Below are positions 12,113-48,700 of a stretch of 64,000 nucleotides of DNA, one piece after another. Source of the DNA: Bilabrum cf. latius (lineage: Eukaryota). Every line of letters starts with the position of its first letter. The stretch's first letter is position 1. A program made the position numbers and the translations under genes. The notes below the pieces were generated by a model. It worked only from the letters and a program-made list of their open reading frames with translations. It did no database searches and had not been told where the DNA came from. The stretch lies in the NCBI GenBank assembly GCA_965178125.1, contig OZ237763.1:310001-374000 (forward strand). Reading direction: 5' to 3'.

Positions 12113-12182
12113 GCCGTGGGTACAGGAGCGCCCTGTCAGAGCCGTGGGTACAGGAGCGCCCTGTCAGAGCCGTGGGTACAGG
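12113..12182. repeat. 28-bp tandem repeat, 2.5 copies (gccgtgggtacaggagcgccctgtcaga)
   Basis: Perfect copies at 12113-12140 and 12141-12168, partial copy at 12169-12182. It lies in the intergenic region between the giant FG-GAP/IPT gene and UBC12. Confidence 0.9.
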
Positions 12183-24325: not shown

Positions 24326-27300
24326 ATGTCGGATCCTTCTAGTCGTAGACGATCATCTTAGGAAGCAGGGCCTCAGGGTGGTGGAAGCGTTCGAAGGGTG
24401 CAAGCTCAGATTGCAGCCTTCTTGAGGCGATAGCATCTGTATAACCAGATCCCTCATCCTTACCCAGAAAGCCTCAAGTCTTAGAATAGCCCACGTAGAG
24501 GTAAGCAATATGAATTGTGCTTGTTTTGGTCGTGGCTACTAAGAGCTATCGGATTCTCAAGTGTTGCGACCACTGTAGTTGCACTATCATCCCTCCTCAC
24601 GCAGCTTTTGTGCTGTACTTGGCCGGGAGCACTGTTCTAGTGCCGAGAGCATTATCTAGCACAAGCCCGGCAACGCAGCTCAGGCTGCGCTACCGAATTC
24701 ACCTGTTCGACAAGGCCACGGGTGTGTTTTTTGGCAGGACCTTTGTGACTTCGCGTGGGCAACTGCTCACGGCGAGTCGCCGTGGAAATGGCCCAGCTTC
24801 AAGCCAGGCCGATGTCATGCTATACGATGCCTAGGGCCCCGGAGAGCTCGCGTACGTGCATACTAGGGCAAATTCAGACGACATCATCGCCGCGGTGGAG
24901 GCCACAGTGGCCGTGTGCTCCAGGCGGCCTGTCGACCCAACGGCAGCGCTCCGGAATCATCAGCGGGAGCTGGAGGCATCTGCACCAAGCGAATCGCCAT
25001 ATGAAGAGGCGATCCAGAAAGCGGCGGCGGCCAGAGTTGCCCCGTCCACGTGGCATGACGGCGGGCTGGTCACGCTGCACGAAGTCTGTGAGCAAGCGGT
25101 CTGCATCTGCAGTCGTGTCATAGCCACAGCTTGCCTTCACAGCCGCGCGTATTGTGCCCCTTCAATAGCTAGCAACATCTACTTCAAGCCTTGTCGTTTT
25201 CTCCTGCTTGCACCGCAGCTGTTGGCTGGGCCCCACTGACGATGTTCAGTCCAAGCCGTACGGCCTCTTTGGCTGACGCCGCCAGCGTTACGACCCTGAC
25301 AGGAGAGGGCGCTCCCAAGCGAATATCGGTGCCTTTGCTCCAGGGAACACCGAGGGCACTGGTGGCCATGCATTCGTCCAACAGGCTGCACACACTGTAC
25401 GGTGCCAGAGCGCCCCCGAGCGATTCGGCCATCGTAAAGGCACAAACGGGCAGACAGGCAGGCGGCCAGCAGAGGCAGCAGCTGATGAACGAAGAACTCG
25501 CCCCGCACGTCCTGGCGCACAAACCTCCTTCGACTTTGCAAGGCACCAAGCTGCAGTACGTGCTGCTCAAGCACCCATCAGCCGCCCCCGCGCTGTCCAA
25601 CGTCGCTCCTCCGGATACCTTCATCGGGCCGTTCGACGTCCTGCCCGGCCTGGTGCCCGTGCGTGTCCCTCGGTCACTCGCCGCGGGAGCCGGCACGCTC
25701 GTCACAGGGAGAGCGGTCTCAACCGCGCCTCCAGCCGTGGCATGTCTCCTGCCAGAGGTCTCTTCCTTCTCCTCCGACTCGTCGCACGCAGCTGCGCCCG
25801 CACCAGCCATCATTGCGATGCCCAAGCTAGCCCCCAGACTCTGCCTCTCGGCGCAGCGAATCGCCCTGATGCTGCCCGCAGGATTCTCCAAGAGGGTGCT
25901 GGAGGCCTGCGTGCGAAGGCTGGAGGTGGACATGTGCTACAAGCGATCGGAGACTGACTTAGGCGAGGGTGTGTCCAGAGATCTCCTCAGTCGGTCCAGG
26001 CTGCAGGGCGCAGAGCTGCACCTGCAGCTGCACTCTGGAGTGCACGTCATGGAGGAGGCCACAGTGCCGCTCAAGATGGGCAGTGGAGGTGCCGGTAACC
26101 TTGGCGGTGGCATGGGCGGCATGCTGGCCATCGAGGACCCGGCAGCGGCGGCGAGAGCAGCGGAGGCCGCCATTCCCGGCCCCGGTGCAATGCGAGGCAG
26201 CACGATGCTTCTGTCCGACAGGGCAGTCCTGTTCCGCTCCTATGCGCCTCATCCCGCGGTGGCACTCGTGGCCAGCGTTCGCTTCATCGTGGAGCTCCCC
26301 ATGCTTCAGCCTGGCGAGGACGGTTCCCATCAAAGGGATGACTCGGGCATGCAGCACATGCAATAGCAGTAGCAGCAGCAGCAGGGAGGCGCGGTCGCGT
26401 CGGCCACCGGGATCATGCAGCCAGAGCAGCCGGCCCCCATGAGCGGGCACGTCGTGCTCGGCCGGTTTGCACAGCGCAAGATCATGGTGGGTAAACAGGT
26501 GTACCCCCTCTTCGATGGGCAGTCTATCCATCTCTCCAACGCGTCGCCAATGAGCAGGAGCGCAAGGCAAGATCCGTCCGATGGACGTCCTGATTCCTCT
26601 AGAGAAACGGCAGGCCCGTACACCAGAAGGCCTTTGGAGCTGCCTCTAAGAGCCCCCTATGCCTCCAATGCAATAGTGCGCGGCCTGTGGCTGGAGCGCG
26701 GCGGCGGGGACGCTCTGTTGCAGGAGCAGCCTTAGGTGTACATCTACGGACCCGAATCGCCTGTGGTCGGAATGAAGCTGGCACTGCACGGCAGCGAGGC
26801 GGCCAAAGCGGCGCCCAAAGCACAGCAGGTGGGTGAGGGGGCCGGCACCATGACCGTTGTGGCCCCGCAGCCGTACGCACCCGAAGACCCCGCCGCAGCA
26901 GATCGTGCCAGGCGAGAGGCTGCGGAGCGCAGGCAGCGGCAGGACGACCTAGACAGGAGGGCGAGGGATCTGGAGGAGCAGCGCAGGAGGGACGAGGAGA
27001 AGAGGAGGGAGTTCGAGGACGATCGCAGGCGGCGGGATCGTGACGACAACGACCGTGACCGTGACGACATCCGTGACAGAGACCGCGACTACGGCAGGGA
27101 CAGGGGTGATGACGGTGACGGTGATCTGGAAGACGAGCGACGGAGGCGACGCGAGGCGGAAGAGGAAGCGGCCGAGCAGCGCAGGAGGGCGGCAAGGCAT
27201 GAGGAGGAGCTCAGGAGGCTAAGGGAGAAGAGGGAGCGGGAGAGGGAGGAGTGGGAGAGGGAGCGCGACGATGAGATTAGGAGACTCAGGGACAAGATGA

Positions 27301-30300
27301 GATCGTCCGGTCGGAGGTATGATGGCGATGACGATGATGATGTCAGGGGTCGCAAGCCCTGGGACTATGGGTAGAAGGGCAGGCCAGCCTCTCCCAACAG
27401 CACGCTGGATTCTGCGTCCGACGTCGGCATGGGCGCGGATGATCGCCTTAGGAACCGCGGGCTGGACGACTCTGGCATCACTGACCCTGACCTCATCGAC
27501 CAGGGCCCGAGGCTGGCAGACCGGCAATCCATGCCGCTCATCGTGACCCGCACCTCAAGGGCCGTGCCCCTCCCCGGACACGCCGACCCGGCCTACCTCA
27601 CCGCTCCCATCATGCCTCGCACTGGCAACACCTTCAAGAGCCAGTACGGGGGCATGCGGCCGATCCCCTACTCGCCCAGCAGGTAGGCCATGGAGGTCGA
27701 CGTGCCCGGTGACGGTGTGCTTACACACGACACGCTGCTGCGGGCCGCCGCTGCCGCCTTTCCACCCAGAGGGATGAGCCTGCCTCGAGCAGCGCGCACG
27801 CTGCTGAACAAGTGCGGATACGCGATGGTGATGGATACTGGGGCTGGGCTGTACGGTGACGAGGGCCCAGGAAGGGAGGGCGGCATGGGAGAGTCAAAGG
27901 GTCCCGAGGAAGGCACCACGCGGGACTTCGGGGTGGGCGACCCTTACGGCTCCGGGTCGAGGGTGCCCGAGCGTGCGATTGAGATCTCTCTGGAAGAGAG
28001 CGACCCGTTGCCCAGGCACAGGATTACCATCCAGCTGGCAGGACTCGTGCTGCCGTCCTTCCTCGGCGATGGCGGCGAGACTGAGGAGGTAGAGGAGTGG
28101 CACGATGGCGAGGATTAGGATGGCAGCGACTGGGAGGATGGCGATGGCGATGACGAGTACGACCGAAAGGGACGGAGGAGCGGCAGCAGGCGACGGCGCC
28201 GCCGCAGGAACGGGGGCAAGGGCGGTGGTAGCGATCGTGAATGGGACGATGACGAGGAGGATGAGGGGGGCGAGGGCGGGTCGCGATCCGGTGGAAGCAG
28301 GAGGGATCGCAAGCGAAGGAGTCGCCGGCGGAGAAGCGGCAGTCGAAGCCGCAGCAGGAGCAGAAGCAGCAGCCGCAGTGATCGAGACCGGCCTCGCCGC
28401 CACCGAAGGGGCTCCAGGAGCGGCAGCGATCGGGACTGGAGCGACGATGACGTTGACCGAAAGGGCGGTAGCCGCAGAGGCCGCAGGCCAAGGCGGGCCA
28501 AGCACGGCTCCACGCGTCAAGTGGCCGTGCGTCGGAAGCGGCGCCGCCAGAGGCAGACCAAGGCAGTATACGCCACGTTCCAGTTCTTCGCGTGCCCGCC
28601 CACTCGGACGGAGCCACTGGTCTGTCTGCCCGCAGACCAGGTGGACGGCAGTACCGGCGCGGATGCTCGCAGGTCAACGGATTTCTCTGGTGGCAGGCGC
28701 CGGGACGACAGGCACCACGACCGGAGAGGGCCAGCTGTCGGTAGGTCCGTTGACTTCCGTGGGACAGGTGGGTTTGCTGCTGCATAGGGCGGGCCTCTGT
28801 ACGGTGTGGGCCAGACTGCTCCAATGCGACCGGCCGAGCGAGGCGCCGGCGGGAGCGTGGGTTATCACGTGCTAGGCAGGCCGGCGGGCTCCCGCGACGC
28901 AAGGGGTGCCCGGGGTCAGGCGGCGGGAGCCGCCGCTCGCCTGCAGGGCCTGTCAAGCGCGGGCAGGAGGGCCTATAGGGACGGAGACAGGCGTAGATGG
29001 GAGCACTCGGGGATCGGAGGGGGTGCTACTGGCCCGTTTGCTGGGCCGCACCCTGGTGAATCAGCGGTCATTGACCCGCAGAGGTACGCGGCCGATGGGC
29101 CCAGGCAGTTCGCTCGGTACCTTGCCGGCTCTGTGGCTCAGGTGGAGCTGTGGGACGCATCGACGCACCTGCCTTTGGGTAGCGCGTTCATCGACTGCAG
29201 CTTGCTTGCGAGGCAGCAGCGCAGGAGGGTAGTGGCGTGCCGCGAGTTCCCAATCTTCTCCACGGCTGCCGCAGCGTTTGCTGCCGCTGGTTCCGCAACC
29301 GCACCCATTGAGTCGGTCATCGCCGGTGGAGAGACGCTGCCTGTCGCGCTCGGCGGCGGTGGAATCGTCGGGTCGCTGCAGGTGCTGCTTTGCAACGAGG
29401 GTCTGCCTCCCGTTGCCAGGCCGGAGAGGGGTGCATCCTCGGCTCTGCGTGCCACGGCTGGCATCGCTGGCACTGGTGTGTCCATCCTCGGGGGTGGCGG
29501 AGGGGCATCCTTTGGCGCCCCACTTGCCGTGTCCGGTCCCAGCCGCACGATGAATCCATCTGCAGCAACGCTGGCTGCATCCCGTGCCGCCAGTGCAAGA
29601 CCAGGAGACCTCCTGCAGCGCGCCCTCGCAGCGACCCGTGCGGCTGGTACGGGGGACCACAAGGCCATGCGGCTGTCGAGGACGAGAACCGTGGCGCGCC
29701 GCATCGGCAGCCGAAAGCAGCCGTCGATGGGCGGCGCAGCAGGAGTTCCCGCCAGCATTGCCATGCAGGGCGGGGCGCTTGCGTCGGGCACGGGCATGGA
29801 TGAGACGGAGCGAGAGTTCGTGGCCCTGCTTCGGGCCAGGAGCGCGGGCCACGGGAGGTCCAGGGGAGGGCGAGGCGGGGGCGAGCCTGAGTGGTGGCAC
29901 GAGTACGCTCTGACCTACGACGAGTCGAGGGCGTTGATGAGGTACCTTGATCCGAAGCACGACGACCAGGTCGCTGTGGATCGGCTCGCCGAAGCTGTGT
30001 TTGGGGCGAGCGGGGCAGAAGTGGGGGCGGCTATGGAGCAGACCCTGAGGCATCAGGACGGGACGCAGGCTGTGGGTGCGCTGCCCTCTGCTTCCATGGA
30101 ACCGCGGGAGGCAGGCGAGGTCGATGAGGCCGTGGCAGATGCCATTTTGGATTTCAGCGGCGGGTACGATGATGTGGGTGCAGGAGATATCCGGCCTGCG
30201 TCGTCTGGCGCAGGTGACGACGGTGATGAGGGCGAGTCATCACCGAGAAAACCACAGGGCATGTACGCTCCCTTCGAGGCGGCAGCTGCCTACGCATCCA

Positions 30301-33300
30301 GGAAGCGGAACGCGAGGCACCACGCGCAGGAAGATGGCGGGACGTGGGCGCCGTCAAGGGATGACCGGTTTGCCCACCACCTGAACGAAGTGCCCAGGCG
30401 GGAGCTCCGCACGGCCGGAATCGAACCCGCGAACGAGCCCTCGCCAATGGAAGTGGGTGCCGCGTTCCTCGCCGATGAGGCCGAAGCAGACTTGAAGGAT
30501 GGCAGGATGACAGTGGGTCGATTCATCCACACTCTTCGCACGAAATGCGCTGCGGCGCTGACGCCCGCCGAGGCTCGCGGGCTGATCGCGAGGCACTGCG
30601 GCATTGCGTCGCGAGAGTCCTCGACCAAGTCCATCCGGGACTACTATCTCACGCCCATCCTGTACAGAGAGGCCATCGAATCGATCCTGCAGGCCGCCAA
30701 GGACGTGCAGCGAGTGAGAGAGAGGCGCATGGACAGAGGTGAGGAGGGAGATGACGAGGGGCGCCGTGGCCGTGGCCGCAAACGAGGCGAGGGGCGGGAG
30801 GCGCGCATGTCTGTCAATGCGGTCATTGCGTGCGGGAAGATCCGCAGGCTGGTGAGAGCCAACCTCGAGGCTCTCCCCGCTGGTGACTCGGACAAAGCGC
30901 TGAAAGCCGCCAAACGACGCGGTGAAGTAGAGGCGCGCAGTAAGTCCGATCGAGACGAGGAGGACGAGGAGCGAGATGAACAGGATAAAGGGAAGAGCAA
31001 GCGTTCCCGACGGTCAGACGGAGGATCTTCCAGCGGAAGCGATTCAGACCGTCGCAAACCACGTGGCAAATCAGGCATTGGGACCCAGGACTCAGTCGAT
31101 GCGGAAGCACTCACTCCGTTTCCCACACGATCCGAACGAGGGCGGCTTCTGGGCCTACTGTAGCAAGCCAGGCCCGACCGCAGGGGCATGCTCTCGTGGA
31201 AAGACGTGCAGGACCAGCTAGAGGGCGGCCTGGGGCTGCGCTTCCCCCTGCGGCGAGACGAGGAGTCCTTCTTGCCCGAGCTGGCCAGCAGGCAGCTGCA
31301 GCGGGCTCGGGCGGCGGATGAGGCCATGCGGGGGCGCATGCGGGGCGGCGAGACCGAGGATAGTCCCCTGGTGGCGCGGGACGGCGATGGCAAGGAGGTG
31401 GTGGTGCGGTCCCGGGGGCCCGTGCCCCGAGGATCGCCCGAGTGGGAGGCCACGGAAGCAGGCAGGCTGGCGGCAGTGTCAGCGTTCCGCGAGGGCAGGA
31501 AGAAGGAGGCATTCGCGAGGCTGCTGGCGGACTCCATCGCGCAGCAGGCCACGCTGCGTCCGTCCTTCGGGCGGGTGTGCCTGCTGGAGATCGAGGTGGC
31601 CAATCCGTACCCACACGACGAGCGCTTCGTGGTGGACGTGCTGGATCCAGCCATGTCAGGCACGCGCCAGTCCTCTCGCAGCCGGCGAGGCCCCCGCAGC
31701 ACGGCCCCAGAGCTGCGGCTGGTGACTGACCCAGAGGAGAAGGCGTACCTGTGGGCCCGGCTGCCGGTGCTGCGGGCGGTGCCGCGGGGCGCTGTGGGGC
31801 CTGGGCTGGAGGAAGGCATGCGCATACCTGCGGCTGCTGGCGGTGGTACTTTCAATGGTGGCATGGGCACTGGCGATGGCTGGACGGTTGGATCCATGAC
31901 GCGGGGCGTGCGTGCCAGTGGGGTGTCCGGTGTGGAGGCGCGACACGGTCCCGGTGCGGCGGTGCCCCCTGGCGTGGTCCCTGGGTCTGGCACTAGCCCA
32001 GGTACCAGTGACCCTGCCTTCACGCCTGACGGGCAGGTGCTGCTGGCCCCGGGCGAGACCATGGTGCTGCCCATGGTGTACCTGTCCTACCGTGACGGGA
32101 CTGTGCGCGGGGGCTCCTCCGTGTACGAGGCCGGCGGTGTGGATGACCGAGACGGGGCTTACAGCTCGGACGAGGAGGGCGGGCACGAGGATGCGGGCCA
32201 TGGAATGGCTGGACGTGGTGCGGGACCAGGTGCCGAGCTGCGGGTCAGGTCCAGCACCAGCCGAGCCATCCGGGCCATGGACCGGGACCAGCGATCGGGC
32301 AAGGCGTCCAGATCGCGCGCGGAGCAGCGGCGGCGTGGCGGCGGCATCGCGCGCCGCACCATCGACGTGCGAGTCATGTCGGTGACGCACGGGCGGTGCG
32401 TGTGCCAGACTGGGGTCCGCATCAAGCCCAGGCCGTTCGCGGTGCATCGCGTGATGCGATACTTTCACCCGTCGGAGCAGATGCTGCGGGTGTTCCTGCC
32501 CGTGCCTGGGAATGCGGGTGCTTAGGGCGAGTGGTAGGACGGCATGGGGGACAGCAGGGGCGCGCTGCGGCAGGCCGCGCTGGATCGGGACGCGATGAGG
32601 ATGGGGCCCGGGGGCATGGTGGGTCTGATGGGTATGGGCGGGGGCCTGGATGTCTGCTTCGCGCACTGCCCTCACCCGGCCGTGTCGGCCGAGGTGGCGC
32701 CATGGACGGGCGATACAGATGGTCAGTCGGGATGGACTCGAGGCGAGGATCATCGTCACCATGGCGCACCATCAGGGCCAGGACCAGCCCCTGCCGTGTC
32801 GGAGCTGCGCCTGCGCACGCGCGCGCCCGCCTTCCCCGAGGCCATGCAGGCCCACGTGGTGCTGTACAGCGACCCCTACTGCGCCCACGTGCGCGAGGTC
32901 TGGCGCGTGGTGGTGCATGGGGTGCAGCACCTGCACCTGGCCGCGCCCGTGGGAGGGTCCAGTCGAGCCGAGATCGTGGTGCGCGGGGACCGCATCAGTC
33001 GCCGGTGCGTGGTGCAGGCTGACGATCCCAGCGAGGTGGGCTTCGACGTGCCTGCCGCCCGGCCCTTTGGACTCGTGTCGGGCGCGTACAACCGCATCCG
33101 CACGAGCTTCGCGCCGCTGCAGCCGGGCCGCCGGACGGCCTTGGTGTCCGTGGCGGACGCGGACACGGCAGAGCTCATGGGGCTGTGGAGGCTCACGCTG
33201 CAGGCGGACGCGCCGGCCGTGGGCCAGACGTACACGGTGCCGGTGCTGGTGGGGCAGACGGTGGGCAAGCGCGTGACGTACACCAACACGTGGCCCACGG

Positions 33301-33656
33301 AGCGCAGGTTCAAGGTGCGGTCCAGCCGGCCTGACGTGGTGGACGTGCGGCCCGACTCGGTGGAGCTGGCCCTGCAGCCGGGCGAGACTGCCTTCATCCG
33401 CGTATCGGTGAAGTCGTACGGGGGCCCTAGCGCGGGCGATCCCAGCCCGAGCGCTCTGATGGCGGCGTCTGGGCTGTCCGGGAGGGAGCGTGTGGAGCTG
33501 GCCCGCAGCCTCGTGTCGAGCCTGCCGCCCGAGTTGGCTGTGGGCGAGGATGAGCTGCGGCTGGTGGGTGCGCGGGAAGCGCTGGTGTTTGTGGATGACG
33601 CGGAGGGCGGAGGGAACGTGGAGGTGCTGGGGGTACGGGTGGTGTACTGCGAGTGA
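24326..33656 (+). CDS. NPHP4: Nephrocystin-4 (ciliary transition-zone protein), ~3,030 aa, exons 24326-24500, 24605-25087, 25219-33656
   Basis: Conserved NPHP4 blocks occur in order: YRIHLFDKATGVFFGRTF, LLQGTPRAL, KAVYATFQFFACPPTRTEPL, FARYLA...VELWDASTHLPLGSA...LARQ, EIEVANPY, KRVTYTNTWPTERRFKVRSSRPDVV, EALVFVDDAEGGGNVEVLGVRVVY. Introns 24501-24604 and 25088-25218 are GT-AG and frame-consistent. There are 14 in-frame TAGs, and the stop codon is TGA at 33654-33656. Confidence 0.9.
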
Positions 33657-33862: not shown

Positions 33863-36800
33863 TCATGAGGAGGACACAGCAAGTCGATCGCACAGAGCCA
33901 TCATAGTCTTGACCACTGAAAGAGAATCAGGGTGCTGCTTGCCCAGCGCGGTCTCCCGGATCTGCATGCATTGCCCGTACAGCTCCAGGGCCTCGCCGTA
34001 CTGGCCCTGGTTATAGTAACACCCAGCCATGCTATACAGGGTATCCCCGTACACAGGATGCTGCTTGCCCAGCGCGGTCTCCCGGATCTGCATGCATTGC
34101 CCGTACAGCTCCAGGGCCTCGCCGTACTGGCCCTGGTTATAGTAACACCCAGCCATGCTATACAGGGTATCCCCGTACACAGGATGCTGCTTGCCCAGCG
34201 CGGTCTCCCGGATCTGCCTGCATTGCCCGTACAGCTCCAGGGCCTCGCCATACTGGCCCTGGGCATGTAGGCATGACGCCATACCGTGCAGCGTGGCGGC
34301 ATACTCGCGATGCTGCTTGCCCAGCGCGGTCTCCCGGATCTGCATGCATTGCCCGTACAGCTCCAGGGCCTCGCCGTACTGGCCCTGGTTATAGTAACAC
34401 CCAGCCATGCTATACAGGGTATCCCCGTACACAGGATGCTGCTTGCCCAGCGCGGTCTCCCGGATCTGCCTGCATTGCCCGTACAGCTCCAGGGCCTCGC
34501 CATACTGGCCCTGGGCATGTAGGCATGACGCCATACCGTGCAGCGTGGCGGCATACTCGCGATGCTGCTTGCCCAGCGCGGTCTCCCGGATCTGCATGCA
34601 TTGCCCGTACAGCTCCAGGGCCTCGCCGTACTGTTTCTGGTTAGTAACACCCAGCCATGCTATACAGGGTATCCCCGTACACAGGATGCTGCTTGCCCAG
34701 CGCGGTCTCCCGGATCTGCCTGCATTGTCCGTACAGCTCCAGGGCCTCGCCATACTGGCCCTGGTTATAGTAACACCCAGCCATGCTATACAGGGTATCC
34801 CCGTACACAGGATGCTGCTTGCCCAGCGCGGTCTCCCGGATCTGCCTGCATTGCCCGTACAGCTCCAGGGCCTCGCCGTACTTGCCCTGGTTATAGTAAC
34901 ACCCAGCCATGCTATACAGGGTATCCCCGTACACAGGATGCTGCTTGCCCAGCGCGGTCTCCCGGATCCGCATGCATTGTCCGTACAGCTCCAGGGCCTC
35001 GCCGTACTGTTTCTGGTTATAGTAACACCCAGCCATGCTATACAGGGTATCCCCGTACACAGGATGCTGCTTGCCCAGCGCGGTCTCCCGGATCTGCTTG
35101 CATTGCCCGTACAGTCCCAGGGCCTCGCTGTACCGTGCCAGTGATCGTAAACATCCAGCCACGTTGCACAGGGTAGTGGCGTAAACCGGATGCTGCTTGC
35201 CCAGCGCATTCGCTAGAATCTGCCTGCATTGCTCGAACAGCTCCATGGCCATATCAGTCTTGCCTTGCTCCGATAGACATAAGGCCATGTTGTGCAGTGC
35301 GACTGCGTAGTCCGGATGCTGCTTGCCTAGCGCGATCTCCCGGATCTGCTTGCATTGCCCGTACAGTCCCAGGGCCTCGCTGTACCGTGCCAGTGATCGT
35401 AAACATCCAGCCACGTTGCACAGGGTAGTGGCGTAGTCCGGATGCTGCTTGCCCAGCGCATTCGCTAGAATCTGCCTGCATTGCTCGGACAGCTCCAGGG
35501 CCTCGCCATACTAGCCCTACGAGTGAAGGCACCCCGCCATGTTGCCAATTGTGGCGGCATAGTCCGGATGCTGCTTGCCCAGCGCGGTCTTCTCGATACG
35601 CCTGCATTGCTCGTACAGCTCCATGGCCTAGTCGTAAAGAGCCTAGAATTGAAGACAGACGGCTAATCGTTTCAGGGGGGGGGCGAAGCCCGTTTGCCCT
35701 GCTTTTGAACGACGCCCAGCAAGTAAGGCCACAGCAAATTGGGTAGATAAAGAAGACGTTGCTCTATAGATTTGCTGTAGCCCCGCAGATCGTCCTGCAA
35801 GCTAGTGCAAAGCGTCCACAGCCTTGAGTTGCCCTGCGCCATGAACTCTTTGCATGTGTCCTAAACTCCGCACTAACGAATGAGCGGCTCTGTCTGGACT
35901 CATCGCATGTATACCACCAAGTCTTGCTGCTTCAGTACCAGCACAATTAGCAGCAGAAAGTTTCAGATGGCAATCCAATTCCAGTGAACACTGTCTGTAT
36001 TGGGCTAAATCGACGACCTTCGACGCCCCAGTTGTCGAATACAAGCATGCTAGTCGCTACAGTCGGTTCGCCCAAGACCGAGTCGAGCTGATGAGGACAG
36101 CCTGATCAGTTCGATCAGCCCTCTCTCCACCAACTTGCCGAGGCATATCGCTTTCATACAGTGTGGCACCAATAACGTACGACAACTCACGTTCGTCATC
36201 TAGCTGATCCAATAGCAGACGCACATGTCTGAGACCCAGCCCAAACGAGTGCATCAGCCGCTTCAGCACTCGACGATGCACCACTGAATTCGCCTACACA
36301 TCCACGTCCTCAGTCAAACACACCTCGACCGCCAGTTCGTCTCGATACTGACCCAAAACTCCCGAGCGTGCCTATGCGTAAAGTTTCCCGATGTCTTTCC
36401 TCGCTTTTGACATAGCCCCTGCATCCCCTGCCATGATCAGGTCAGGGCTCAGGCCCTCGAATGCATCTTCACCTTCCAGCTCTCGCATCCGATGCGCGGC
36501 CTCGGGAGGCAGCAGGCACGTCATGGCCGCAGTGCCAGAGTAGTACCACTGTGGACATGCCACGATTGCCACCAAGACCACCTGGCCGCTGCTATCCACC
36601 GCGTTGGCACTGATACAGCCTGTATCCACATGGCGCTGCATCCTGTCTGTCTGGAAAGTGGCAGTGGCGATCATATGAGTTGAGCAACACCATCGCTGTA
36701 GACTAGCCTGCACCAGTGCAAAGGACGCCCTACGCTCGTCGGCTATCATGCAGAACGAATCAAGCTGCCCAAAGTGCACCGCCGACATGTGGTCAGACTC

Positions 36801-38747
36801 CAGTTTTGATACCCTAAGATCGATCGCCCATACCCGCGGCTTGGCCTCATCCGACTCCATCCAATCCATCCACACCACATCCGGGATCAGCAGCCGGTGC
36901 GTGTCCAGCACCATGCGCTCCCCGCTCGCCAGCTGATGCACCTCCACGTCAAACGGAAGGTGCAGAATGTGGTGCATAGCAGCTGATCGCTCGCATACGT
37001 GTTCCACCGCAGGTAATTGCTTCCTGTAGTCGAGATTCACGCCTATACTCTCGATAGCAGCGTATACAGCCTTGGCCAGCTTCTGCTCCTGCGGTGTGAG
37101 CCTTTTCTCGTCCTCCTCCGTCAGCCGCATGTGGGTGGGATCTAATGAATCTCCGAGGCGCTGCACGGCAGCGGGATCCATGCCCCAATCCTGAAGCATA
37201 TCCAGGAATGTTGAAGTACGGGATGCATCTGACTCTGACTCTGATGAGGCGTTGGAGCTTGGTGCAGCAGTCTGAGTGCTACCAGGCCAAACGGAGGTGA
37301 TATATCTGTGCTGCACCAATCCTGCAACGTTGAGACAATCGTAAGGAGCAATCCCGAAGTGATGGGCCAGAGGCTTCACCACGTCCTCCAGCTGCTCCTC
37401 GTCCCAATGCATGGACACTCCTCCATCCGATGATCCCACTCGCAGTGTCGTCTCCCGGATAGATACACCAAACGCAGCTTCAAACTCCCCTGGACCAGTC
37501 TTGCGCCGATCTTGCTGCTCTGTCTTGGTCCCACCAAACCTCTCTGGACTCCACGGCATGCAACCCCGCACATCCACGCGCGCGAACGCCTGCACTCGTA
37601 TCACATAGTGCCCGCCTCCAGATATACTCACTCGAACATCCACGCACTCAAGCAGAGGCGTCGACACGTGCACGCTGTCCATCACGTGCACCCAACGACT
37701 CGCCGCCGCCTCCCGCTTCGCCGCCTTGGCCGCCATGCGCGTGCTGCCGTAGATGCCCAGGTGGTCGAATGCGAACTTCAGGAACAGGCCCAGGCTCTCA
37801 TGCACAGCCTTGATGCCCCCGGCCATGCCCCCCGCATCGATGAACTTGAGACCCAGGGCCTCCTCAATCTTCGCCTTGTCCCCATCGGTGAAGCCCACAG
37901 GGTCCAGCGACCTGTCCCCGTCCCTCCACAGCATCTCCACCTCGGGGAAGCCCTCCAGCGCCTCGCGCACGTCATGCCTGAAGAGCACCCCGATGCGGTC
38001 TAGCCGTTGCTTGCGTTCCTGCTGCTCGTGCGGCCACAGGGCCACGGTACGCTTGGCGGCCTCGAAGGCGGGCTGTCGGCCTGCGGGACTGGGGGCCTTG
38101 TCATCATCAGCAATATCGGCCTCATCGCCTGCAAACCCAGCTGGTGGCACTGGGCCAAGCGGTATGACCGTGGGGCTGACAGGCTCCGGCTCAATGTATC
38201 CTATCCTCCTACCGGTCCCTGATGCCCCTGCCTCTAGGCTTCTGACACGCACTGCTGCGGCCCCTCCATACCCAACGCTGCTGCTAGGTGGCTTCTTCGA
38301 TCCTTGCGTTTGCCCAACCGATACCGCGCCAGTAGCTGCCGGGGTTGACAAGGTGGAAGCACCTGATGCTGCTATGCTGCCCGTCATAGTTGGCGATGAC
38401 CGTCCTACAGTAGTTGCTGAGTTTCCCTGAGTGTCACCGGCACCACGGTCCGGGCAAGAGAATGCCTGAACGGCTGCACCCGCAGATATCAACTCAAGCT
38501 TGCCTTCATCGCAAGTAAGAGGATATTGCCCGCCCTTTGCTCCGCGGAGGATAGTATTTCCTGACATCCCCTCTTGATCAATACCTTTTCCGTTTGCCAT
38601 AGAACTGTTTGCAGCAATCGGATCTTGTGACAAATGCTCAGGAACTGCAGCACTGATATCCAATGGTCTGGCACTTGCCGTACATGATTTTTCATTCGGG
38701 TCCGTGCTCTCAGACATGGGCTGCTGTCCTGCGATACTCACAACCAT
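33863..38747 (-). CDS. Clu (clustered-mitochondria/CLUH-like) domain protein with C-terminal 42-aa TPR array; 2-bp frameshift at ~34643
   Basis: ORFs 36372, 36057, 35802 and 34641 are in one frame joined by 8 TAGs. Clu-like motifs: GGIKA...LFLKFAFD...IYG...AAKAAKRE, TLRVGSSDGG, DVEVHQLASGERMVLDTHR, LMHSFGLGLRHV. TPR units read GQYGEALELYGQCxQIRETALGKQHPxY. After a 2-nt deletion the repeats continue in another frame to TGA at 33863-33865. Confidence 0.75.
33930..35640 (-). repeat. Tandem 126-bp repeats (~13-14 units) encoding 42-aa TPR motifs
   Basis: The core gctgcttgcccagcgcggtctcccggatctgc recurs every 126 bp. Several unit types are near-identical at DNA level (YGDTLYSMAGCYYNQ, YAATLHGMASCLHAQ, YATTLCNVAGCLRSL). 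Confidence 0.95.
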
Positions 38748-39751: not shown

Positions 39752-42700
39752 TCACGCCAATCGCTCCCTCAGGATCAGGTCCTCCAGCGAGACCCGCCCG
39801 TTTCTGCTCTTGGGAATGCTTCGTCTCTCTTTCACTCTCGCCGATCCGCCCGAAACCGACCCAGCTTCCCCCGAAGCAACCGACTCGTTGGGCGAGATGT
39901 GCCTAGACAAAGTTGTTCTCCCAGACTGCCTGCTTGTATCGCGCCCTGGAGAGTCGAGGTCTGGACTGTCGCCCCCGTCAGCATCCGTTGCGTCCACTCC
40001 GGCTCTTGCCGCCACTGAAGCCACCACGATGGCCCTGGCAGAGTCGCTGCCGAGCTTCCACAGGAAGAGCACAATAACTTTGCCCAGCTGCACCAAGGGT
40101 TCCTGCAGCACAATGTCAATAGCAAACGACACCAGGCTGGCAATGACCCAAGACCTCGCCTGCTCCGGCGTGAACAGTATCCCGTACAGGCAGCACAGGT
40201 AGAACATGAAGCCCACCACTACGAGCAGCACGCCGTACACCAGCCCAATCATCAGGCTTCTGTCCCACCACGCCTCTTCCCAATCTTCAACCTGCTGGTG
40301 CCTCCTTCTCTTGATCACCGCCCTCCTTCTCTTGAGCAGCTTCACGATTCTCAGCGCAGATGCGTGGAAAGTGGGATTGTCGCCCATGGCCTGTGCCAGC
40401 TCCGTGCGAATTCGGACTTGCTCCGTGCCGCTGTCGTGCAGTGCACCCCTGAGGCACTCGAATATGAAGTACCCTGCCATTATGAGCAGAGCAGGCAGCA
40501 CCTGCAGGCCAAAGACGGCCCCAGCGGCTTCTTCAGCGAACGGCAATGACAGCAAGCCCATGAGCACACCGCCAATCATCTGCAGCAGGATGGCAGGCAC
40601 CAACGCATATAGCGCGTTGTAGACCCAGCCTCTTCTCGACTGAATGAATGACACAGTGCCCAGCACTATCATACACAGGCCAATTCCGGCCAGGATAACG
40701 ATCGAACCAGCCGCTCCGTCCTGCTCCGCCCACACCTCTGCGCTCAGCAGGTAAAGCCCGAGAAGCATGCCCACGAAGCCAGCCCACACCCACACGATGG
40801 ACACGATACCGAGGGCATTCAGCCAAGGCCGGAGCCATTTGGCAGGCAGGGGTGCCTTCACGCTCAGCTGAGTCCGTCTGCCCGTGCTCGTGGTCTCTTG
40901 GGCAGCGCCAGCAAGGCGAAGACTGCGCACGATGCGCCTACAGGTCGAGTCAAACTCGCCCTCAAGCACGGCCCAGTTCTCTCTCGCGTCCTCAACACGT
41001 GTGCCATCTAAAGATGAAGATACATGGCCCTTATCCGGTGCTGTGGCCCCCTTTTGTCCCACTGACTCGCACCGGGAGCGAATGATTACTTCAACACCGT
41101 TGTTGCTTCGGCTGGTGGGCTCCCCTCTTGACATCGTCGCAACGTTGGGTATCATTTTCGACTCGGCGTGCACCCGCATTGCCAGTGCAGCAGCGAGTGA
41201 TGCAATGAGCTCGGGGTGTCGCCGAGACGCTTCGCCCTCAGGAAGCCCTTCATCGTTGTCGATTGTACTGCTGCCAGCAGCAGAAGCAGCAGCTGCACCC
41301 CGACTCGAGATAGAGCCAAGCCTGCTACCAAGAGAAGAAAGACCAAGCCGGCGCATGTGCTCTGTCTTGTGGAGGCTCTTCTGCGAGAGCATGCTGGGGT
41401 CCCGCATCAACTCGGGTTGGGCCACCACGTGTAGTAGGACGCTACGAACCTCGTTCAATGTGAGAACATGGCTCATGCCAGCAGGACTCCTCCGCTTGTA
41501 CACAAACCATTCTACAGCTGCATCCATGTCTGCAAGCGCACTGATCACCGCGCGTGACACGCTGACGGCTTCACGTGGGTCGATAGATGTCCTCGTTCCA
41601 ACAGAAGGCTCGCATGTGGGATCATCAGGAGCTGCATCGGAGTTATTGCGAGCACAGCGCCTGGCAGCTCGCAGTACCGCTTCGAGCGGAATGACGTGGT
41701 CTGATGGGTCATCACCACTCACGTCACTCCCGGCGTCTGAAGCAGTCGAAATGCCGCCAAAACCGACCATCCGAGTGCGACTGTCCGCGCAAGGCACCGC
41801 CTCCGTCGCGATGATCCCCCACGTGCCCTCGTTCGAATGCTTCGGGGGATCGACGTCTGCCTCGCAGGGTGAACCCGGAGGGATGGCACCAATCTCAACA
41901 GCATGGCCAATCGCAAGCCCGCCAGCCTTAGTGGATATAGCATCAGCCTGCTCAGCAGACCCTTGATTACCTCCTGCAGCTCCGTTGCTTTGCGGGCTCT
42001 GGGCAGCGCCATCATCTGCTGCTTCATACGGGCCAAAAGTCTGCGCTTGCTACTGAGCCTCACCATGATGCGAATCCAGCCCACTGAGATCATCACCGAT
42101 GACAGAAGGTGCCCGCTCGAGCACCCCATGCTCACCCGATTCCTGGAGTGCAGCAAGTGCTTCTGCCTTGCGGCCCGCCAGCTCCTTGGACCTTTGCTGT
42201 CTGACAGCGTAGGAAACGTCAAGACTTGCAGCACGGAACGTGTTGATGAACGCGAATAGAAACGGAGACAACCGCTTTACCGGGATCATGGAGGCCGCGG
42301 AAATAGCGGCAGAGACGAATCGGGCCGATACGCGCTCAGAATTGCTCCCGAAGAACACAGCATTGATAGCCATCGAGGTCAGGCATGTGGCCGTCAGGAT
42401 CAGCAAGCGCTGCGGCCGGGTCACCACCAGCAGGTCCTCCTTGGGCGTAAAGAAGATGCTGCCCCACATGTGGCCTCTACGCAGACCGTCAAGCCATTGC
42501 TGGGTCAGGTAGGCAACTACTAGCCAGAGTGTGCCTCGCTGTCGAAGGTCCATCCACTCATGCCTGGCGTCTTCCTTGTCCTGTCTAATTTCCTCCAGCT
42601 GCAGCCTAAGTCCCTCTTCTTCGCCTCGTACAGCGGCCTCGATCTGCTCCAGATCAACATAAGGCGGGTACACCGCGTACAGTTCCTTCTCGAGCGCCCC

Positions 42701-45700
42701 AGTCGCGCTCGCCAAACGACTGCTACCTTCTTCCTTTGATCTCCTGCTTGTCCTGGTCTTGTTGGATCCCTACTCGACCAATGATGCCCCCGACATGGAA
42801 TGCAAGGCATGCGAGCCATCGACTCCATCGAAAGCACCGCTAGCCAGTAAATCATCACGGGTCAAGCTCGGTCCTGCCACGTGAGTTGTTCCTTCTTCAC
42901 TAGTCGCAAGGTCTAGCTGTCGCACACTCACGTCCACGCCGGTTGACGGTGATTCCACGCTTGGCTGCTGGTTGGAGCCAACACTTGACGTGCTGACGGC
43001 ATACTTTTGGCGTGGAGTCGTCGGCATGGCACCGCGCGCCCTCGTTGCAGCATCATCTTCGTCGAGAACAGCCTTTGCCTGCCTTCGTTTCCTCTGTTCC
43101 TGAACGATTCCTCTCCTGTGCCTCTGCAGCACCTTGAGGTACACCTCTAGCTGGTCCTCAATGTGCAGCTGCTCCATGCCCACAGCCCTCTGAATCCGTC
43201 CAAATCGAAGCATGTGAGCCTGCCTCAGCTTCCTGAGCTCGGGCCTGCGCCAGCCCTCCACGATCGCGGATGTGACCCAAGCGGCCGCAAACGCCACCAA
43301 CAACACACCGAGTACAATCACAGGGAACAAGTTTTCGGGCCTGAGGTAGTTTATCAACAGCCCAGCATCTCCCACAGGGTCCACTCGATTTACCGTGGGA
43401 AGGTCTCTACGGACTACCGAAGTGAAGTCGGATAGGTGCGTCGTGGCACACACTGCAGCCCGTGCGCCGGTCACTACTTCAGTTTCCACACGTAGCAGAA
43501 CCAATCCCTCCGGCGACTCATCTGCGTAGCTTGATCCGTCCAGTCCATTACAGACAAAGTCCTCGGGAAGTGCATCTGGCCTGATTGGAAGTCTCACTAG
43601 GATGGGACACGCAAGGCCCGCCACACCCTGCTGCACCGAACCGGTTACTCCAGATTTGGCGAATGAAACCGACACAAAGCTTGATGGTCTATTCTCGCGC
43701 TCAGCGGTGGGAACGAGCAAATCTTGTGGTGTCTGTGGCGAAACGTCCCAGGCGACCAGGCGCACGTCCACGACGGGGCCGGCCAGCTCCAACTCAGGCT
43801 AAGCACCTATTGCGTCAACCCCAGCTTGCAACTAGCTGCCTTCAACGCGAAGACCCGCCTCACTGCGACCAGCAATAGATCGTCGAATAGATAGTCTTGC
43901 CGTCCCTGGCAACCCCACTTCGAGTGGCGCCTCACCAACCGCCACGTCTATCGATGCGGAAGCTGCCAGACGCTAAATGGTCGCATCGACCTATGTTCTG
44001 TATTCAGACAGCGTATTCACGCCCTACTGCAAGCGACGAGCTGTGCCAGTGCCTGTATTTTCATCTGCCAAGACTTCCTGCGCGAGGCCGAGAATCTGCC
44101 TGCCGATCGACCGAAGGGAATTCCGGGCCGACCCACTCCCCAGCGAGGATCGCTCCTACGCCCCAAACGCAACCAAAAGCCCCTCCAATCCGTCCTCGTC
44201 CACACTTGATATAGTACTGTTGAGCCTTTCCTATGCATTTTCAAGGACTTTGCTCAACAGCGACTGCAGGAGACCTTGTAGTTGCTGCCGATCCTCGGAG
44301 CGCAGCTCGCCTGGATCCTAGTACAGGCCGGATATCACGCTTAATGCCTGTTCGGCCTCATCTGGAGTGGCAGTCTCTAACTGCTCGAGCGACGATAGAA
44401 GTACTGCAAGCGCCGAGGCGCGCACGTCCTAGACAGACTCGAGAAGGGCGCCACTGATGTCGCAGGCTCTCCCGTGCCACCCGCTACTACACGTGCATAC
44501 GGCCGCACAACCAATAGAAAGTCCAGGGTTATGAACGCACGACAAGTCGTCTGGTATCCGCATACAGGAACCATGGCCACTGCATTCGACCGCGGGAACA
44601 CTGCCGCTGGGAACAAGAACCTGCGAGGATCCTGGACATGCCTGCACTGTTCTCAGGTCTGAAGAATCAGACTTACTCGCGGCGGGACCAATCAGGCACT
44701 GGCCAAAGAAACAGCTAGCTATATCTGTGGATCCAGCTGGTGCGGTGCAAGTCGTTGCATTGCAAAAGCTCTATGCCTCATTGCCTCGTGCTAGCGCACT
44801 GGCTTTGTCGGAAATAGTCTGAAGCACGGACAGAACCTCGTCCACGGCTTTGAACTCGGTCTCGCTGGACAAATTACCAACGCTATCACTGAGTCCTGCC
44901 AGTCTATCTTCGGCGATTGCACTGATATTTCCAACCAAGGATCCGGATGAATCTTGCTACTCAACTATTCTCACGATGACAGGCGAGCCGATCTGATCGT
45001 ACAGCGACTCAACCATGGAACCGAGCTGATCGCGTACCCGCACGCTAAGCACCACGGCCTATGCCACCCCAGGCGCACTCGTCAAGGCATCTCTCGCCTC
45101 CTCGCTTGGACTGACGACCACATTATCGATCGCAGGCGACTAGGAGAATCCCCGGGTCAGCGGAACGTACTCTACCGGGGACGCATTACCTAATGCAGCA
45201 GTCAAGCCAGCATTGGTCAATTGTCCTGCGCCTGCCAGCTGGGAAGCTGTTATTGGCAGCCGATAGTATCCGAAGCGGAAGGAGAGCGGCAAATGGTCAG
45301 CTTCGTCTGTCCATCCTACGGCACGCAACTTAAGACCATCACCCGCAGTTTGCGATAATAAACTAACAGACACAGGCTGTGCACTATTCCCAATAGTACC
45401 CTGATGAATAACCTCCAGGTGACCAGATGATGGAGGTGCGTTCGTTTCGATCACTACGGCGGCTGGAACAACCCAATCTTTTGTCGCACTTGACACGCGC
45501 ACTTCCACTCGGTACTGCGCACCCTCGGCCAACAGATCCGATCGAATGATTGCTTGGCCTAGCGAAGGCGCTCCACTGAAAACGGCTGCTCCAAGATCCT
45601 GGCCTCCGGTTGTTCCAGGAAGCACGCGGTACGCGGCAACAACATCAGAAGGCAAGACTGATGAATCTGTGGGTTGGATTAAAGGACCAACTGGTATCGG

Positions 45701-48700
45701 CAACCCAGTGGATCCGTCCAACATGATCGTATTCACGACGAGCCGTCTCTACGTGCTGATTATGGTTGCGTCATCGTCTGAACGGCCGCCGGCGACGACA
45801 GAAGAAGGGTCCACCTGAAGCTGCACGATGGGAGCTTGCACTATCTGGGATCCTGACAGATCTGAGTACGTTCCTACAATACAATAGGTTGTCTACTGCC
45901 TCCTTGCAAACGGGAATAAGGTTCCAACATTGACAGCCGCGCCCGGATTACGGACAATCGCCATGGACAGTGCCACCACGGAACCAGCCGGCAAGGCCCC
46001 ACCAGGCAGCTCCAGCACTGGTCCTATTCTGGCAGGTACAGACTGCAGATCACCGCGTAAGGCCGGTGAAACCGGAACAGAGGGTAGGAACTGGCTAGAA
46101 CTTGTACCCGTCAGGTTCAAACCTGGGCATGGCGCACCGTCAGTGAATGCGCGCGAGGCGGATGGCACGGATCCTGCGGCTGAGTCGACGAGTGCAGGGC
46201 TGGTCAGCCCTACATACAATAGCCTGCAGTCCCACTGGATCGATAGAGGCCTCGCTGTGACGTCAAGATCCGCCGAGCTGGTTCCGTCGAGCCGAATCGC
46301 TCTCTGATGCGGAACGAATCTTCGAGAACCTCCATTGATTGCGGCTCTCACACCATCCGGTCGTGTTGCAATGCGGACTACTGTCGAGGCAGACACGACA
46401 CCCGGTAAACGTACTCCGCCAATGATCAGCCTCTGTCGCACGGTAGCTCGCAGCGTGTACGATCTGCCGGCCCGAAGTGCGCCAGCGGGTAGCTCCAGTC
46501 GCCTTCCCCTCTATCTTCGATATCTACTCAGTTGCGATTCGGGCAGCAAATCAACCCGTAGGCTGGGATCTGAGACGCCAAAAGTGGGGCCCGCCGAAAC
46601 CATTGTCCACTCCACGGGCTCCTGCTCTACGTTCGCATCCACGCAAGGCGATGCGATAACCCGGGTCTAGAGACCAAAAGGCCTCAGAGCAGATCCCTCC
46701 ACGGTGTTGCCACCCTGCATGGAGATAATGGGGACGTTCTCAGCCACGCGAACGATCGTAATAGTTGCGGACCCCGTGCTCGTGGCGAGAAAATTTGCGA
46801 CTGTCACGCGCAAGGTAATATTTGTAGCTTGCGCAATGGCTGCTTGTGGCAGGGAAACAGATGCCCTGCGGCCGGCCGGGCCGTTCAAGAATGCCTATAC
46901 GGTGTCCACGTCAGTTGATCTCACCAAATGCCCCTGTATGGATATTAAGGACCACTAGAATGATAACGCACGCCCCAGATTGCCGTATGAAGAGTCCGCT
47001 GTGATTGTCACCCCATCACACGGGCCTATTGAGGTCGCGGTCTCAACCACGGCCACAGGCGGCTCGACCCGCCGCTTCGGGGGCTCAATTTGCAGGCATG
47101 TTGGTGCCATGGAGCGGAGTGAGAAGGGCGCAGACCGGAACACGCCACCTCGCAGCTGTAGTTGAGACAGCTCGCTATTGGTTCCTCTGACGAAGGATGT
47201 AGCCTACCCTGCTGTAGTGGTGGCGGCCGCCCGGCAGTTCAACACACCGGCCCATGGTCTGAGTGGTACGACTGTGGCACCAGCACCAAGGAACACATCA
47301 AGCTATCTTGACGACCTAAATGTGCACCATGCAGTCTGACCCTGCACTCCCTATGCCTGTGCAGCGAGAAGTCCTGCAACATTGGAGATGAGCTGACTAC
47401 AAGGCACTGACTGCAGCCGATTTGCGCCTATCGTGGCATCGACTTGGCCGGCAAATGTGATGGAAATACGAGACCCAGACGCATCGAATACTGCTGATTG
47501 CACAACTGGCGCTGGGCTCCGGTCACCGAGTGGTGCTTGCCCAGATGCAGTCGCGTATTGAGCTCGCTACGATTGTGGATTTGGCAATTCGACATTTGCG
47601 GATCGCACGGCGCTGGTACCCAGATCTATGATAGCCCCCGACTCAAAGCGTCCACTCTGCAACGCTGATAACGCAGGAATGGCGATTAGGTCACTCGGTG
47701 TGTGCCAAGCGCACATGGCGGGCTCACTCGAATCGTCGTCGCCGAATACTTCTGCTAGTGTGGCAGCGGATAGGATGGCTGGGTCTGTTGAACAGCGGAA
47801 GCCATCCTGTCGAACCGTGGCAAGCAACGACTGCGATGCTTCGAGTCCTGACAGGCTCGCAGGCAAGCTTGCAAGCACCTAGCGGCCGGCCATATTGGTG
47901 GCGCGGTCAAATCGTAGGAGGGCAGCATCCGCCACTTCGAGGAGGTCTGCTGACTTCAACTGGGGCGGATCGACGAAAACTGTTTCTATCTATCGCTGGG
48001 CAGGCTGAATCACTTCTGTCACGGACACTGTAGCTTCAAGGGGGTTGTCGCTGCCACCAGCACCCCGTGATTGCTAAGATGGCCCGTCGTACTAGGGGTC
48101 TGTGCTGCCGAACTCAAGGTAAATTGATCCACCACCTATCACCAGGGTTTCAGAAAGGTCAGAAGGCAGTGCCGAGCCGGGGCTGCTGCGGAGAACGAAG
48201 CTCACATCGTCTCGCCAGTCAGCGGGTTCAATCAGCCTGCGAGATCCCCCGATGACAGACAAGAAACCGCCGACTGTTGCATTGACTACGCAGTCAATTT
48301 GAACCGTAGCAGCTGGCCGGCTGCTCAGCTTAACCCGCAGCACTGCGTCTCTGAACGTGTATGAAGCAGAGCCGGGCCGAGTCTGTGTCACCGCCACAGT
48401 GGCCTCCCGCGGCCGGATGGACACCCCAACCTTATCAACTTCTCGTAGAGGAAGGAACACATTCGAAACGCTTCCAGCAGCAGACCGAGCGATTGCGCTG
48501 TACGTGCTATCAGTAGTTCCATCAGGGTCGATCCCGATCGTAATATTCACCGGCTTTCTTGGGGGAGATGCAATGCCGTCAGAAATTGTGAACAGCTTGA
48601 CAGCCTTTGGAATGCTCCAATCGCTAGGAGAGAACTCCATAGTTGCAAGTGATAGATTGCTAGCTGCATCAGGTGGTACATTACCGAGATCCTGCGCGAT

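Follow-up and report, generated by a model that had tools for sequence, protein, structure and literature searches.

In a stretch of 64,000 nucleotides assigned to Bilabrum cf. latius (contig OZ237763.1, positions 310,001 to 374,000; hereafter the window), the triplet TAG recurs inside long protein-coding genes, and it is near certain that it serves there as a sense codon. From comparison with related sequences, UAG is highly likely to mean glutamine (Gln) in these genes. The window as a whole very likely represents a GC-rich, intron-poor eukaryotic nuclear genome in which UAG has passed entirely from stop to Gln, UGA serves to end genes and UAA carries no sense meaning. A first-pass annotation had noticed two in-frame TAGs in one unit of a tandem TPR array, aligned them with CAG in sister units, and claimed that TAG means Gln rather than Trp, Leu, Tyr, Glu or pyrrolysine. 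The evidence gathered here extends from that array to the remaining genes of the window and to their relatives.

Eight reading frames, together 18,257 codons long, contain 109 in-frame TAGs and not a single internal TAA or TGA (Table 1). The largest encodes a giant protein with FG-GAP modules, a REJ domain and a C-terminal membrane region, which is also the main source of homolog evidence; the log10 probability of a frame of 5677 codons free of TAA and TGA is -40.7. Frames holding TAG match Pfam families with E-values of 5.6e-70 (FG-GAP), 5.6e-50 (TIG), 3.9e-16 (REJ) and 1.8e-21 (DUF4042/HEAT), and TAG is found in frame inside conserved protein-coding genes, as expected of a UAG-only-to-Gln nuclear code (NCBI table 15 type); the protein of the 2854-codon frame matched no Pfam family. 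Frames of at least 300 codons add up to 13,829 amino acids in the standard code, versus 29,470 when TAG is read as sense. The same total with TAA as sense is 14,892 amino acids, scarcely above the standard code. With TGA as sense it rises to 35,738, but solely through numerous frames that overlap one another on the two strands, none longer than 1143 amino acids, as is to be expected in GC-rich DNA.

Table 1. Features of the window (coordinates in the window; frames are listed with their codons, in-frame TAGs and terminators).
Feature	Position	Strand	Codons	TAG	Terminator	Remarks
TIG/FG-GAP frame	1..11436	-	3812	27		open at window end; IPT/TIG and FG-GAP domains
Ubiquitin-conjugating E2 core exon	12967..13491	+		0	TGA	UQ_con, E = 9.1e-37
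629-codon frame	16145..18034	+	629	3	TGA	
HEAT-repeat / DUF4042 frame	18247..24078	-	1943	10	TGA	
2854-codon frame	25092..33656	+	2854	11	TGA	
Poly-Gln run	26361..26384	+		2		CAA TAG CAG TAG CAG CAG CAG CAG; TAG at 26364-26366 and 26370-26372; independent of homology
Tandem TPR array, kinesin-light-chain-type	33863..35714	-			TGA (33863-33865)	about 14 units of 126 bp (42 codons)
Frame break in TPR array	34641..34646	-				TAC TAA CC... versus TAC TAT AAC C... elsewhere; 2 nt deleted
TPR open reading frame	34641..38747	-	1368	8		N-terminal region with marginal CLU match, then TPR units
First pair of TPR TAGs	35517-35519 and 35511-35513	-		2		columns 24 and 26 of the 42-codon unit, GGC between; noticed in the first-pass annotation
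Second pair of TPR TAGs	35628..35645	-		2		in the preceding, more diverged unit; absent from the first-pass annotation
Giant frame	39752..56785	-	5677	47	TGA	0 TAA and 0 TGA internally
(SP)n-linker frame	58730..63286	+	1518	3	TGA	membrane anchor

Gene ends and codon counts separate TAG from the other two stop codons. Six of the seven frame ends among the eight frames are TGA, the lone TAA lying at the frame break in the TPR array; the credible terminators, namely these six and that of the E2 gene, are TGA in 7/7 cases and TAG in 0/7. The in-frame Gln codons CAA and CAG stand at 143:496, a ratio at which 31.4 TAAs would be expected in frame. None is seen (P = 2e-14), which indicates that only TAG has been reassigned and that TAA is not sense. 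These counts show that neither TAA nor TGA is a sense codon here; UAA may either act as an infrequent stop or go unused. Among the Gln codons TAG has a share of 14.6%, from which we take the code change to be old. An ambiguous code, in which UAG is read as Gln inside genes and also terminates in some contexts, we regard as unlikely: the sample holds only seven terminators and one TAG lies 29 codons ahead of the TGA of the HEAT-repeat gene, but TAG ends none of the genes in this small sample, and conserved membrane domains lie downstream of the last TAGs of the giant gene.

The same counts bear on the proposal that the TAGs are damage, in the form of pseudogenes, repeat-induced C-to-T mutation or assembly error. 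CAG-to-TAG is the classic outcome of C-to-T mutation in repeats, and the TPR array does carry a 2-nt frame break. Such mutation should also have turned CAA into TAA and TGG into TGA or TAG, yet the 18,257 codons are free of internal TAA and TGA, and most TAGs lie in single-copy genes. Moreover, four sequencing runs contain contigs identical to the window within 39752-50700 (0 differences over 6-7 kb), and relatives keep TAG at the same sites, as described below. We therefore give damage practically no credence.

The TPR array was the origin of the Gln claim. Its period of 126 with 12.6 copies and 82% matches was recovered by Tandem Repeats Finder, and its 42-residue units score above the Pfam cut-offs for TPRs of the kinesin-light-chain type (TPR_10, E = 3.7e-57, 189 bits against a cut-off of 27.5; TPR_12, E = 6.6e-55, 184 bits against 30.1). 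The quoted bases are present: the minus strand reads CAC TCG TAG GGC TAG TAT GGC GAG GCC CTG from 35525 to 35496, and the sister units at 34519-34490 and 34267-34238 read CAT GCC CAG GGC CAG TAT GGC GAG GCC CTG, with CAG at both TAG positions. Minus-strand units were codon-aligned from 14 anchor motifs spaced by 126 nt, with one 124-nt interval. In this alignment of all 126-bp units, which the first-pass annotation had proposed as a check, Gln codons are the commonest opposite TAG in both columns. Column 24 contains TAG twice, the remaining in-frame full units having CAG (8), CAA (1) and CTG (2); column 26 contains it once, the remaining units having CAG (7), AAG (2), CGG (2) and CTT (1). In the second pair, the TAG at 35643-35645 falls in column 24, a Gln column, while that at 35628-35630 belongs to column 29, where Glu is the rule and all other units have GAG, or ATG in one unit. 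Gln-consensus columns number 5 of 42 and hold three of the four TPR TAGs (chance P = 0.006). Codons for Leu, Lys and Arg are present in columns 24 and 26 too, so the two sites first noticed do not settle the residue by themselves. The four TPR sites are suggestive: they point to Gln without settling the residue. The Gln answer of the first-pass annotation is supported by the much larger body of data given below; its own basis of two sites was too narrow, and a third TAG of the same gene faces GAG.

The array is interrupted by the frame break of Table 1, where the 2-nt deletion creates the in-frame TAA that ends the 1368-codon open reading frame (ORF). Past this point five to six TPR units can still be read in the shifted frame, up to the TGA at 33863. 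The break reflects either a frameshift of recent date or a mistake of assembly among nearly identical repeats.

Evidence on the residue from outside the array comes from homologs of the giant protein. An exhaustive search was made with 1200 of its residues, in which 22 TAGs were entered as X, and the best 150 of 193 hits were tabulated; the identity classes below are drawn from these. In hits of at least 40% identity (31 hits), 50 residue pairs were obtained at 19 TAG sites, of which 20 show Gln, while ordinary Gln codons in the control face Gln in 72 of 152 pairs. The log-likelihood is -107.2 for Gln, -127.1 for Lys and -137.3 for Glu, so that Gln leads the next residue by 20 log units. The residues other than Gln are Ser (7), Arg (6), Ala (4), Pro (3), Glu (3), Asp (2) and one each of Thr, His, Gly, Val and Leu; Trp and Tyr do not occur. 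At 50% identity or more (15 hits), 11 of 25 pairs show Gln (control 45/75) and the log-likelihoods are -53.8 for Gln, -66.5 for Glu and -67.1 for Lys, a lead of 12.7; between 30 and 40% (27 hits), the proportion is 10/59 (control 27/146). When every TAG site has one vote, cast by its closest homolog, Gln receives 12 of 26 votes when that homolog is at least 40% identical, and 9 of 15 when it is at least 50% identical. In the one-vote control, the closest homolog shows Gln at 56% of Gln sites, at 8% of Glu, 13% of Lys, 7% of Arg, 2% of Ser and 1.5% of Leu sites, and never at Trp or Tyr sites.

The most direct comparison is offered by a close relative consisting of the fragments P0176, P0177, P0178 and P0014, which are 81-89% identical to the giant protein, three of them lying on one 10.5-kb contig. 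It has Gln at TAG sites 2932, 3073, 3145, 3161, 3277, 3373, 3631 and 4119, that is, at 8 of 10 residue-aligned sites; the other two show Asp at 2969 and Glu at 3297, and there is a gap at 3194. Word-indexed protein searches scored only the 8000 candidates sharing most words, so that relatives may have been missed. They gave one hit for residues 2400-5677 of the giant protein and two for residues 3140-4339, three fragments of 83-88% identity, and no hit for residues 780-1943 of the HEAT-repeat protein among its 8000 candidates. Taken with the poly-Gln run of the 2854-codon frame, the close relative, the one-vote count and the likelihood lead bear out the claim that TAG means Gln. The accompanying claim, that Trp, Leu, Tyr, Glu and pyrrolysine are not meant, is supported by the absence of Trp and Tyr and the single Leu among the 50 pairs and by the log-likelihood of Glu (-137.3 versus -107.2 for Gln).

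Two further explanations are weighed by these alignments. That TAG is sense for another residue (Glu, Lys, Leu, Ser, Trp, Tyr or pyrrolysine) appears very unlikely. One TPR TAG does face GAG, the close relative has Asp or Glu at 2 of 10 sites, Lys and Glu come next in likelihood, and UAG stands for Leu, Ser or Glu in other protists, according to extracts from McGowan et al. 2024 (PMC11687900). Against this stand the lead of Gln in both of the closer identity classes and the fact that Trp, Tyr and Leu are all but missing opposite TAG, yet are well conserved in the same alignments (0.88, 0.63 and 0.67, respectively). In addition, the closest homolog shows Gln at 1.5-13% of Glu, Lys, Arg, Ser and Leu sites versus 46% of TAG sites, and two TAGs lie within a poly-Gln run. 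The second explanation keeps the standard code and lets RNA editing remove TAG, either by U-to-C editing to CAG (Gln) or by A-to-I editing to UGG (Trp). The A-to-I route is excluded, since no Trp is found in the 50 pairs opposite TAG. U-to-C editing and reassignment look alike at the DNA level, both giving Gln, but editing would have to act 109 times within 18,257 codons of nuclear genes, at sites that share no flanking motif, and we know of no precedent for nuclear-gene editing on that scale without a motif. The share of TAG among Gln codons and its persistence at the same sites in relatives likewise speak against editing, which we consider highly improbable.

In-frame TAG is also found in relatives of the giant gene. 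The relatives found in databases are fragments of 65-500 amino acids ending at TAG. Of 22 ORF fragments whose C-terminus lies inside the alignment, six end exactly opposite a window TAG (P = 2e-6), in a region where TAG makes up 1.8% of codons; a further exact end is that of P0177, which breaks off immediately ahead of the TAG at residue 3882. In the close relative, standard-code ORF fragments end exactly at four window TAGs other than the ten residue-aligned sites. Such ends imply that the relatives hold TAG at the same sites and have been truncated by standard-code gene calling. The fragment alignment (A1, mean column identity 12%) was too gappy to serve as a seed, and a single protein was used for a scan of contigs. 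An environmental (metagenome) contig of 5659 nt and 58.6% GC, L001, carries one frame of 1886 codons with 17 TAGs and no TAA or TGA; its other five frames each contain 12-43 TGAs or TAAs. This frame, 46% identical to the giant gene over 1761 aligned residues, indicates that the trait is common to relatives. Window TAGs face Gln codons of L001 at 9 of 22 sites (8 CAG, 1 CAA), and ordinary window Gln codons do so at 21 of 66. The log-likelihoods for the window TAGs in this comparison are -49.9 for Gln, -56.0 for His and -64.2 for the background.

Several observations weigh against the reading of UAG as Gln, or against parts of the code proposed here. In the reverse comparison, TAGs of L001 face a window Gln codon at 1 of 16 sites, the rest being Arg (3), Ser (3), Leu (2), Ala (2), Val, Phe, Asp, His and Gly. 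This differs from the forward 9/22 (Fisher p = 0.025), and the background log-likelihood (-43.2) beats that of every residue (Lys -44.6, Gln -47.4). Other family members have Gln at two of the L001 TAG sites and Glu or Asp at three. As far as this one gene goes, the TAGs of L001 either lie at fast-evolving positions or mark another meaning of UAG in that lineage. Among homologs of 30-40% identity, Gln (-152.0) is ahead of Glu (-154.5) by only 2.5 log units, with Arg at -160.0. Internal paralogs beyond the TPR array, 25-50% identical, supplied a partner at 31 of 109 TAG sites, the best partners being Leu (5), Arg (3), Gln (3), Pro (3) and others; they are too diverged to inform on the residue, and this tally is noise. 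Ordinary Gln codons are likewise poorly conserved at the divergence of these paralogs and of L001. Diverse residues opposite TAG, which the first-pass annotation had named as the finding that would contradict it, were formally encountered only in the internal paralogs and in the reverse L001 comparison. The homolog evidence comes entirely from one gene and the TPR array, and multiple pairs at one site are not independent. The relative of 81-89% identity is either a paralog in the same genome or a gene of another organism. For UAA as a stop, no TAA terminator was found among the seven credible gene ends in the window; for the decoding machinery, a scan of the window yielded no tRNA gene, and eRF1 is not encoded there.

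Under the reassignment to Gln, the unit at 35490-35545 would be an ordinary TPR of the kinesin-light-chain type in which two ancestral CAGs became TAG through C-to-T transitions, changes that would be synonymous in a code with TAG as Gln. By analogy with other codes, decoding would be carried out by a tRNA-Gln whose anticodon has changed from CUG to CUA, pairing with UAG and not with UAA, and eRF1 would no longer recognise UAG. Extracts from Panek et al. 2017 (PMC5304391) and McGowan et al. 2024 (PMC11687900) present this model of tRNA-Gln(CUA) and altered eRF1 for other UAG-to-Gln and UAR-to-Gln codes. At the 12 positions flanking sense TAGs no base exceeds a frequency of 0.46, and the picture is similar for CAG; up to 47 TAGs in one gene imply that decoding is near-complete. 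UAG is reassigned here, and is not subject to motif-dependent readthrough.

The surroundings of these genes identify the kind of genome. GC content is 54-68% in the window, and the E2 core exon marks it as eukaryotic nuclear-type DNA. This exon, which has no N-terminal part, is accompanied between 12967 and 16144 (+) by ankyrin-repeat pieces in different frames; the shifting frames suggest introns there, though the giant genes have none. In the protein atlas the E2 matched only generic eukaryotic E2 clusters, and the named distant homologs are scattered over an oomycete, a bicosoecid, a cryptophyte and an amoebozoan, all cellular eukaryotes. An origin of the window in a giant virus or phage using code 15, rather than in a cellular eukaryote, has two points in its favour. 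Ankyrin, TPR and E2 genes also occur in some giant viruses. TAG-to-Gln recoding is described for crAss-like phages in extracts from PMC9523058. A scan of viral contigs with 1200 amino acids of the giant protein, however, gave nine pattern matches and no confirmed relative. The window encodes membrane proteins of the PKD/REJ kind, a protein with HEAT repeats and, in an exon, an E2; the ankyrin pieces suggest introns, and all named distant homologs come from cellular eukaryotes; a viral origin is thus extremely improbable. Rfam gave no match in the window at gathering thresholds.

The runs whose contigs are identical to part of the giant gene are filed under four organism labels in four studies, and may reflect a shared culture strain, an associate or a contaminant. 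They also contain additional contigs that differ from the window by about 10% over 40290-43250, where the giant gene encodes its C-terminal membrane part; this indicates a paralog family of the membrane domain in the same data. Among the 40 differences listed between run contigs and window (239 more exist), none touches a TAG codon, and they provided no usable strain polymorphism. Within the giant ORF (50815-53635, -), 121-residue stretches surrounding TAG sites 1315/1786 and 1360/1831 show 100% identity, the TAGs matching as well; this internal duplication is either very recent or a product of gene conversion. Two shorter tandem repeats were noted: a 36-bp unit in three perfect copies at 62453-62560, which codes for part of the (SP)n linker, and an intergenic 28-bp unit in 2.5 perfect copies at 12113-12182.

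Nuclear code changes are rare, and codes that split UAG from UAA rarer still, being confined to a handful of lineages in the extracts from Panek et al. 2017 (PMC5304391) and McGowan et al. 2024 (PMC11687900). Such splits show that the translation machinery is able to tell the two codons apart. To models of stop-codon capture the window would add a contrasting case, with high GC, UGA as working terminator and TAG as 14.6% of Gln codons. Standard-code gene calling shatters genes of this kind, and table 15 is required for annotating this genome and those of its relatives. In a literature search, no account was found of a Gln code limited to UAG in any GC-rich lineage outside the ciliates, which does not show that the case is unpublished. 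We advance as a tentative possibility, less probable than not, that the window reflects an independent and undescribed origin of a UAG-only-to-Gln nuclear code. It would have arisen in a GC-rich, intron-poor protist lineage, neither ciliate nor fornicate, that ends its genes with UGA instead of UAA and whose clade is represented among environmental sequences; for one relative at least (L001), the meaning of UAG would perhaps be different or unsettled, since its TAG sites do not follow Gln.

Known codes resemble that of the window to different degrees. The closest likeness is to the fornicate Iotanema spirale, for which extracts from Panek et al. 2017 (PMC5304391) report UAG as Gln with UAA kept as stop: in both, the nuclear code has UAG alone reassigned, to Gln, and UAA is not sense. 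The two differ in that UAA is the primary terminator of Iotanema, whereas the window has TGA at 7/7 gene ends, about 60% GC and very long intron-free genes. In ciliates, extracts from McGowan et al. 2024 (PMC11687900) attribute UAG-only reassignment to Gln to two lineages of phyllopharyngeans and to Protocruzia tuzeti, with Leu in one lineage. As in the window, UAG is sense and UAA is not, and TAG is widespread across genes, but in the cited text UAA is the preferred stop and GC content is 27-54%, against 54-68% here; nor is the window ciliate-like in its architecture, with 17-kb genes on a 64-kb stretch.

The UAR-to-Gln code (NCBI table 6) is used by many ciliates, hexamitid diplomonads and dasycladalean and cladophoralean green algae, as given in extracts from Cocquyt 2010 (PMC2984419). 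It shares with the window the turning of a stop codon into Gln and UGA as terminator, and differs in that TAA is also Gln. As a candidate for the window it was rejected, since TAA is not used as a Gln codon, with none in frame against about 31 expected. The code 15 of crAss-like and other recoded phages likewise has TAG as Gln, and it keeps TAA and TGA as stops (extracts from PMC9523058), but there it belongs to phage genomes with their own suppressor tRNA, while the window contains eukaryotic genes and the scan of viral contigs found no relative of it. UAG alone has also been reassigned in the non-ciliate nuclear genomes of the rhizarian exLh, to Leu, and of Scotinosphaera, to Ser, according to the extracts from Panek et al. 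2017 and McGowan et al. 2024; the residue differs, the window pairs showing Leu in 1/50, Ser in 7/50 and Gln in 20/50. The UAG-only-to-Gln variant is therefore already known, and the window is very probably a further case of it.

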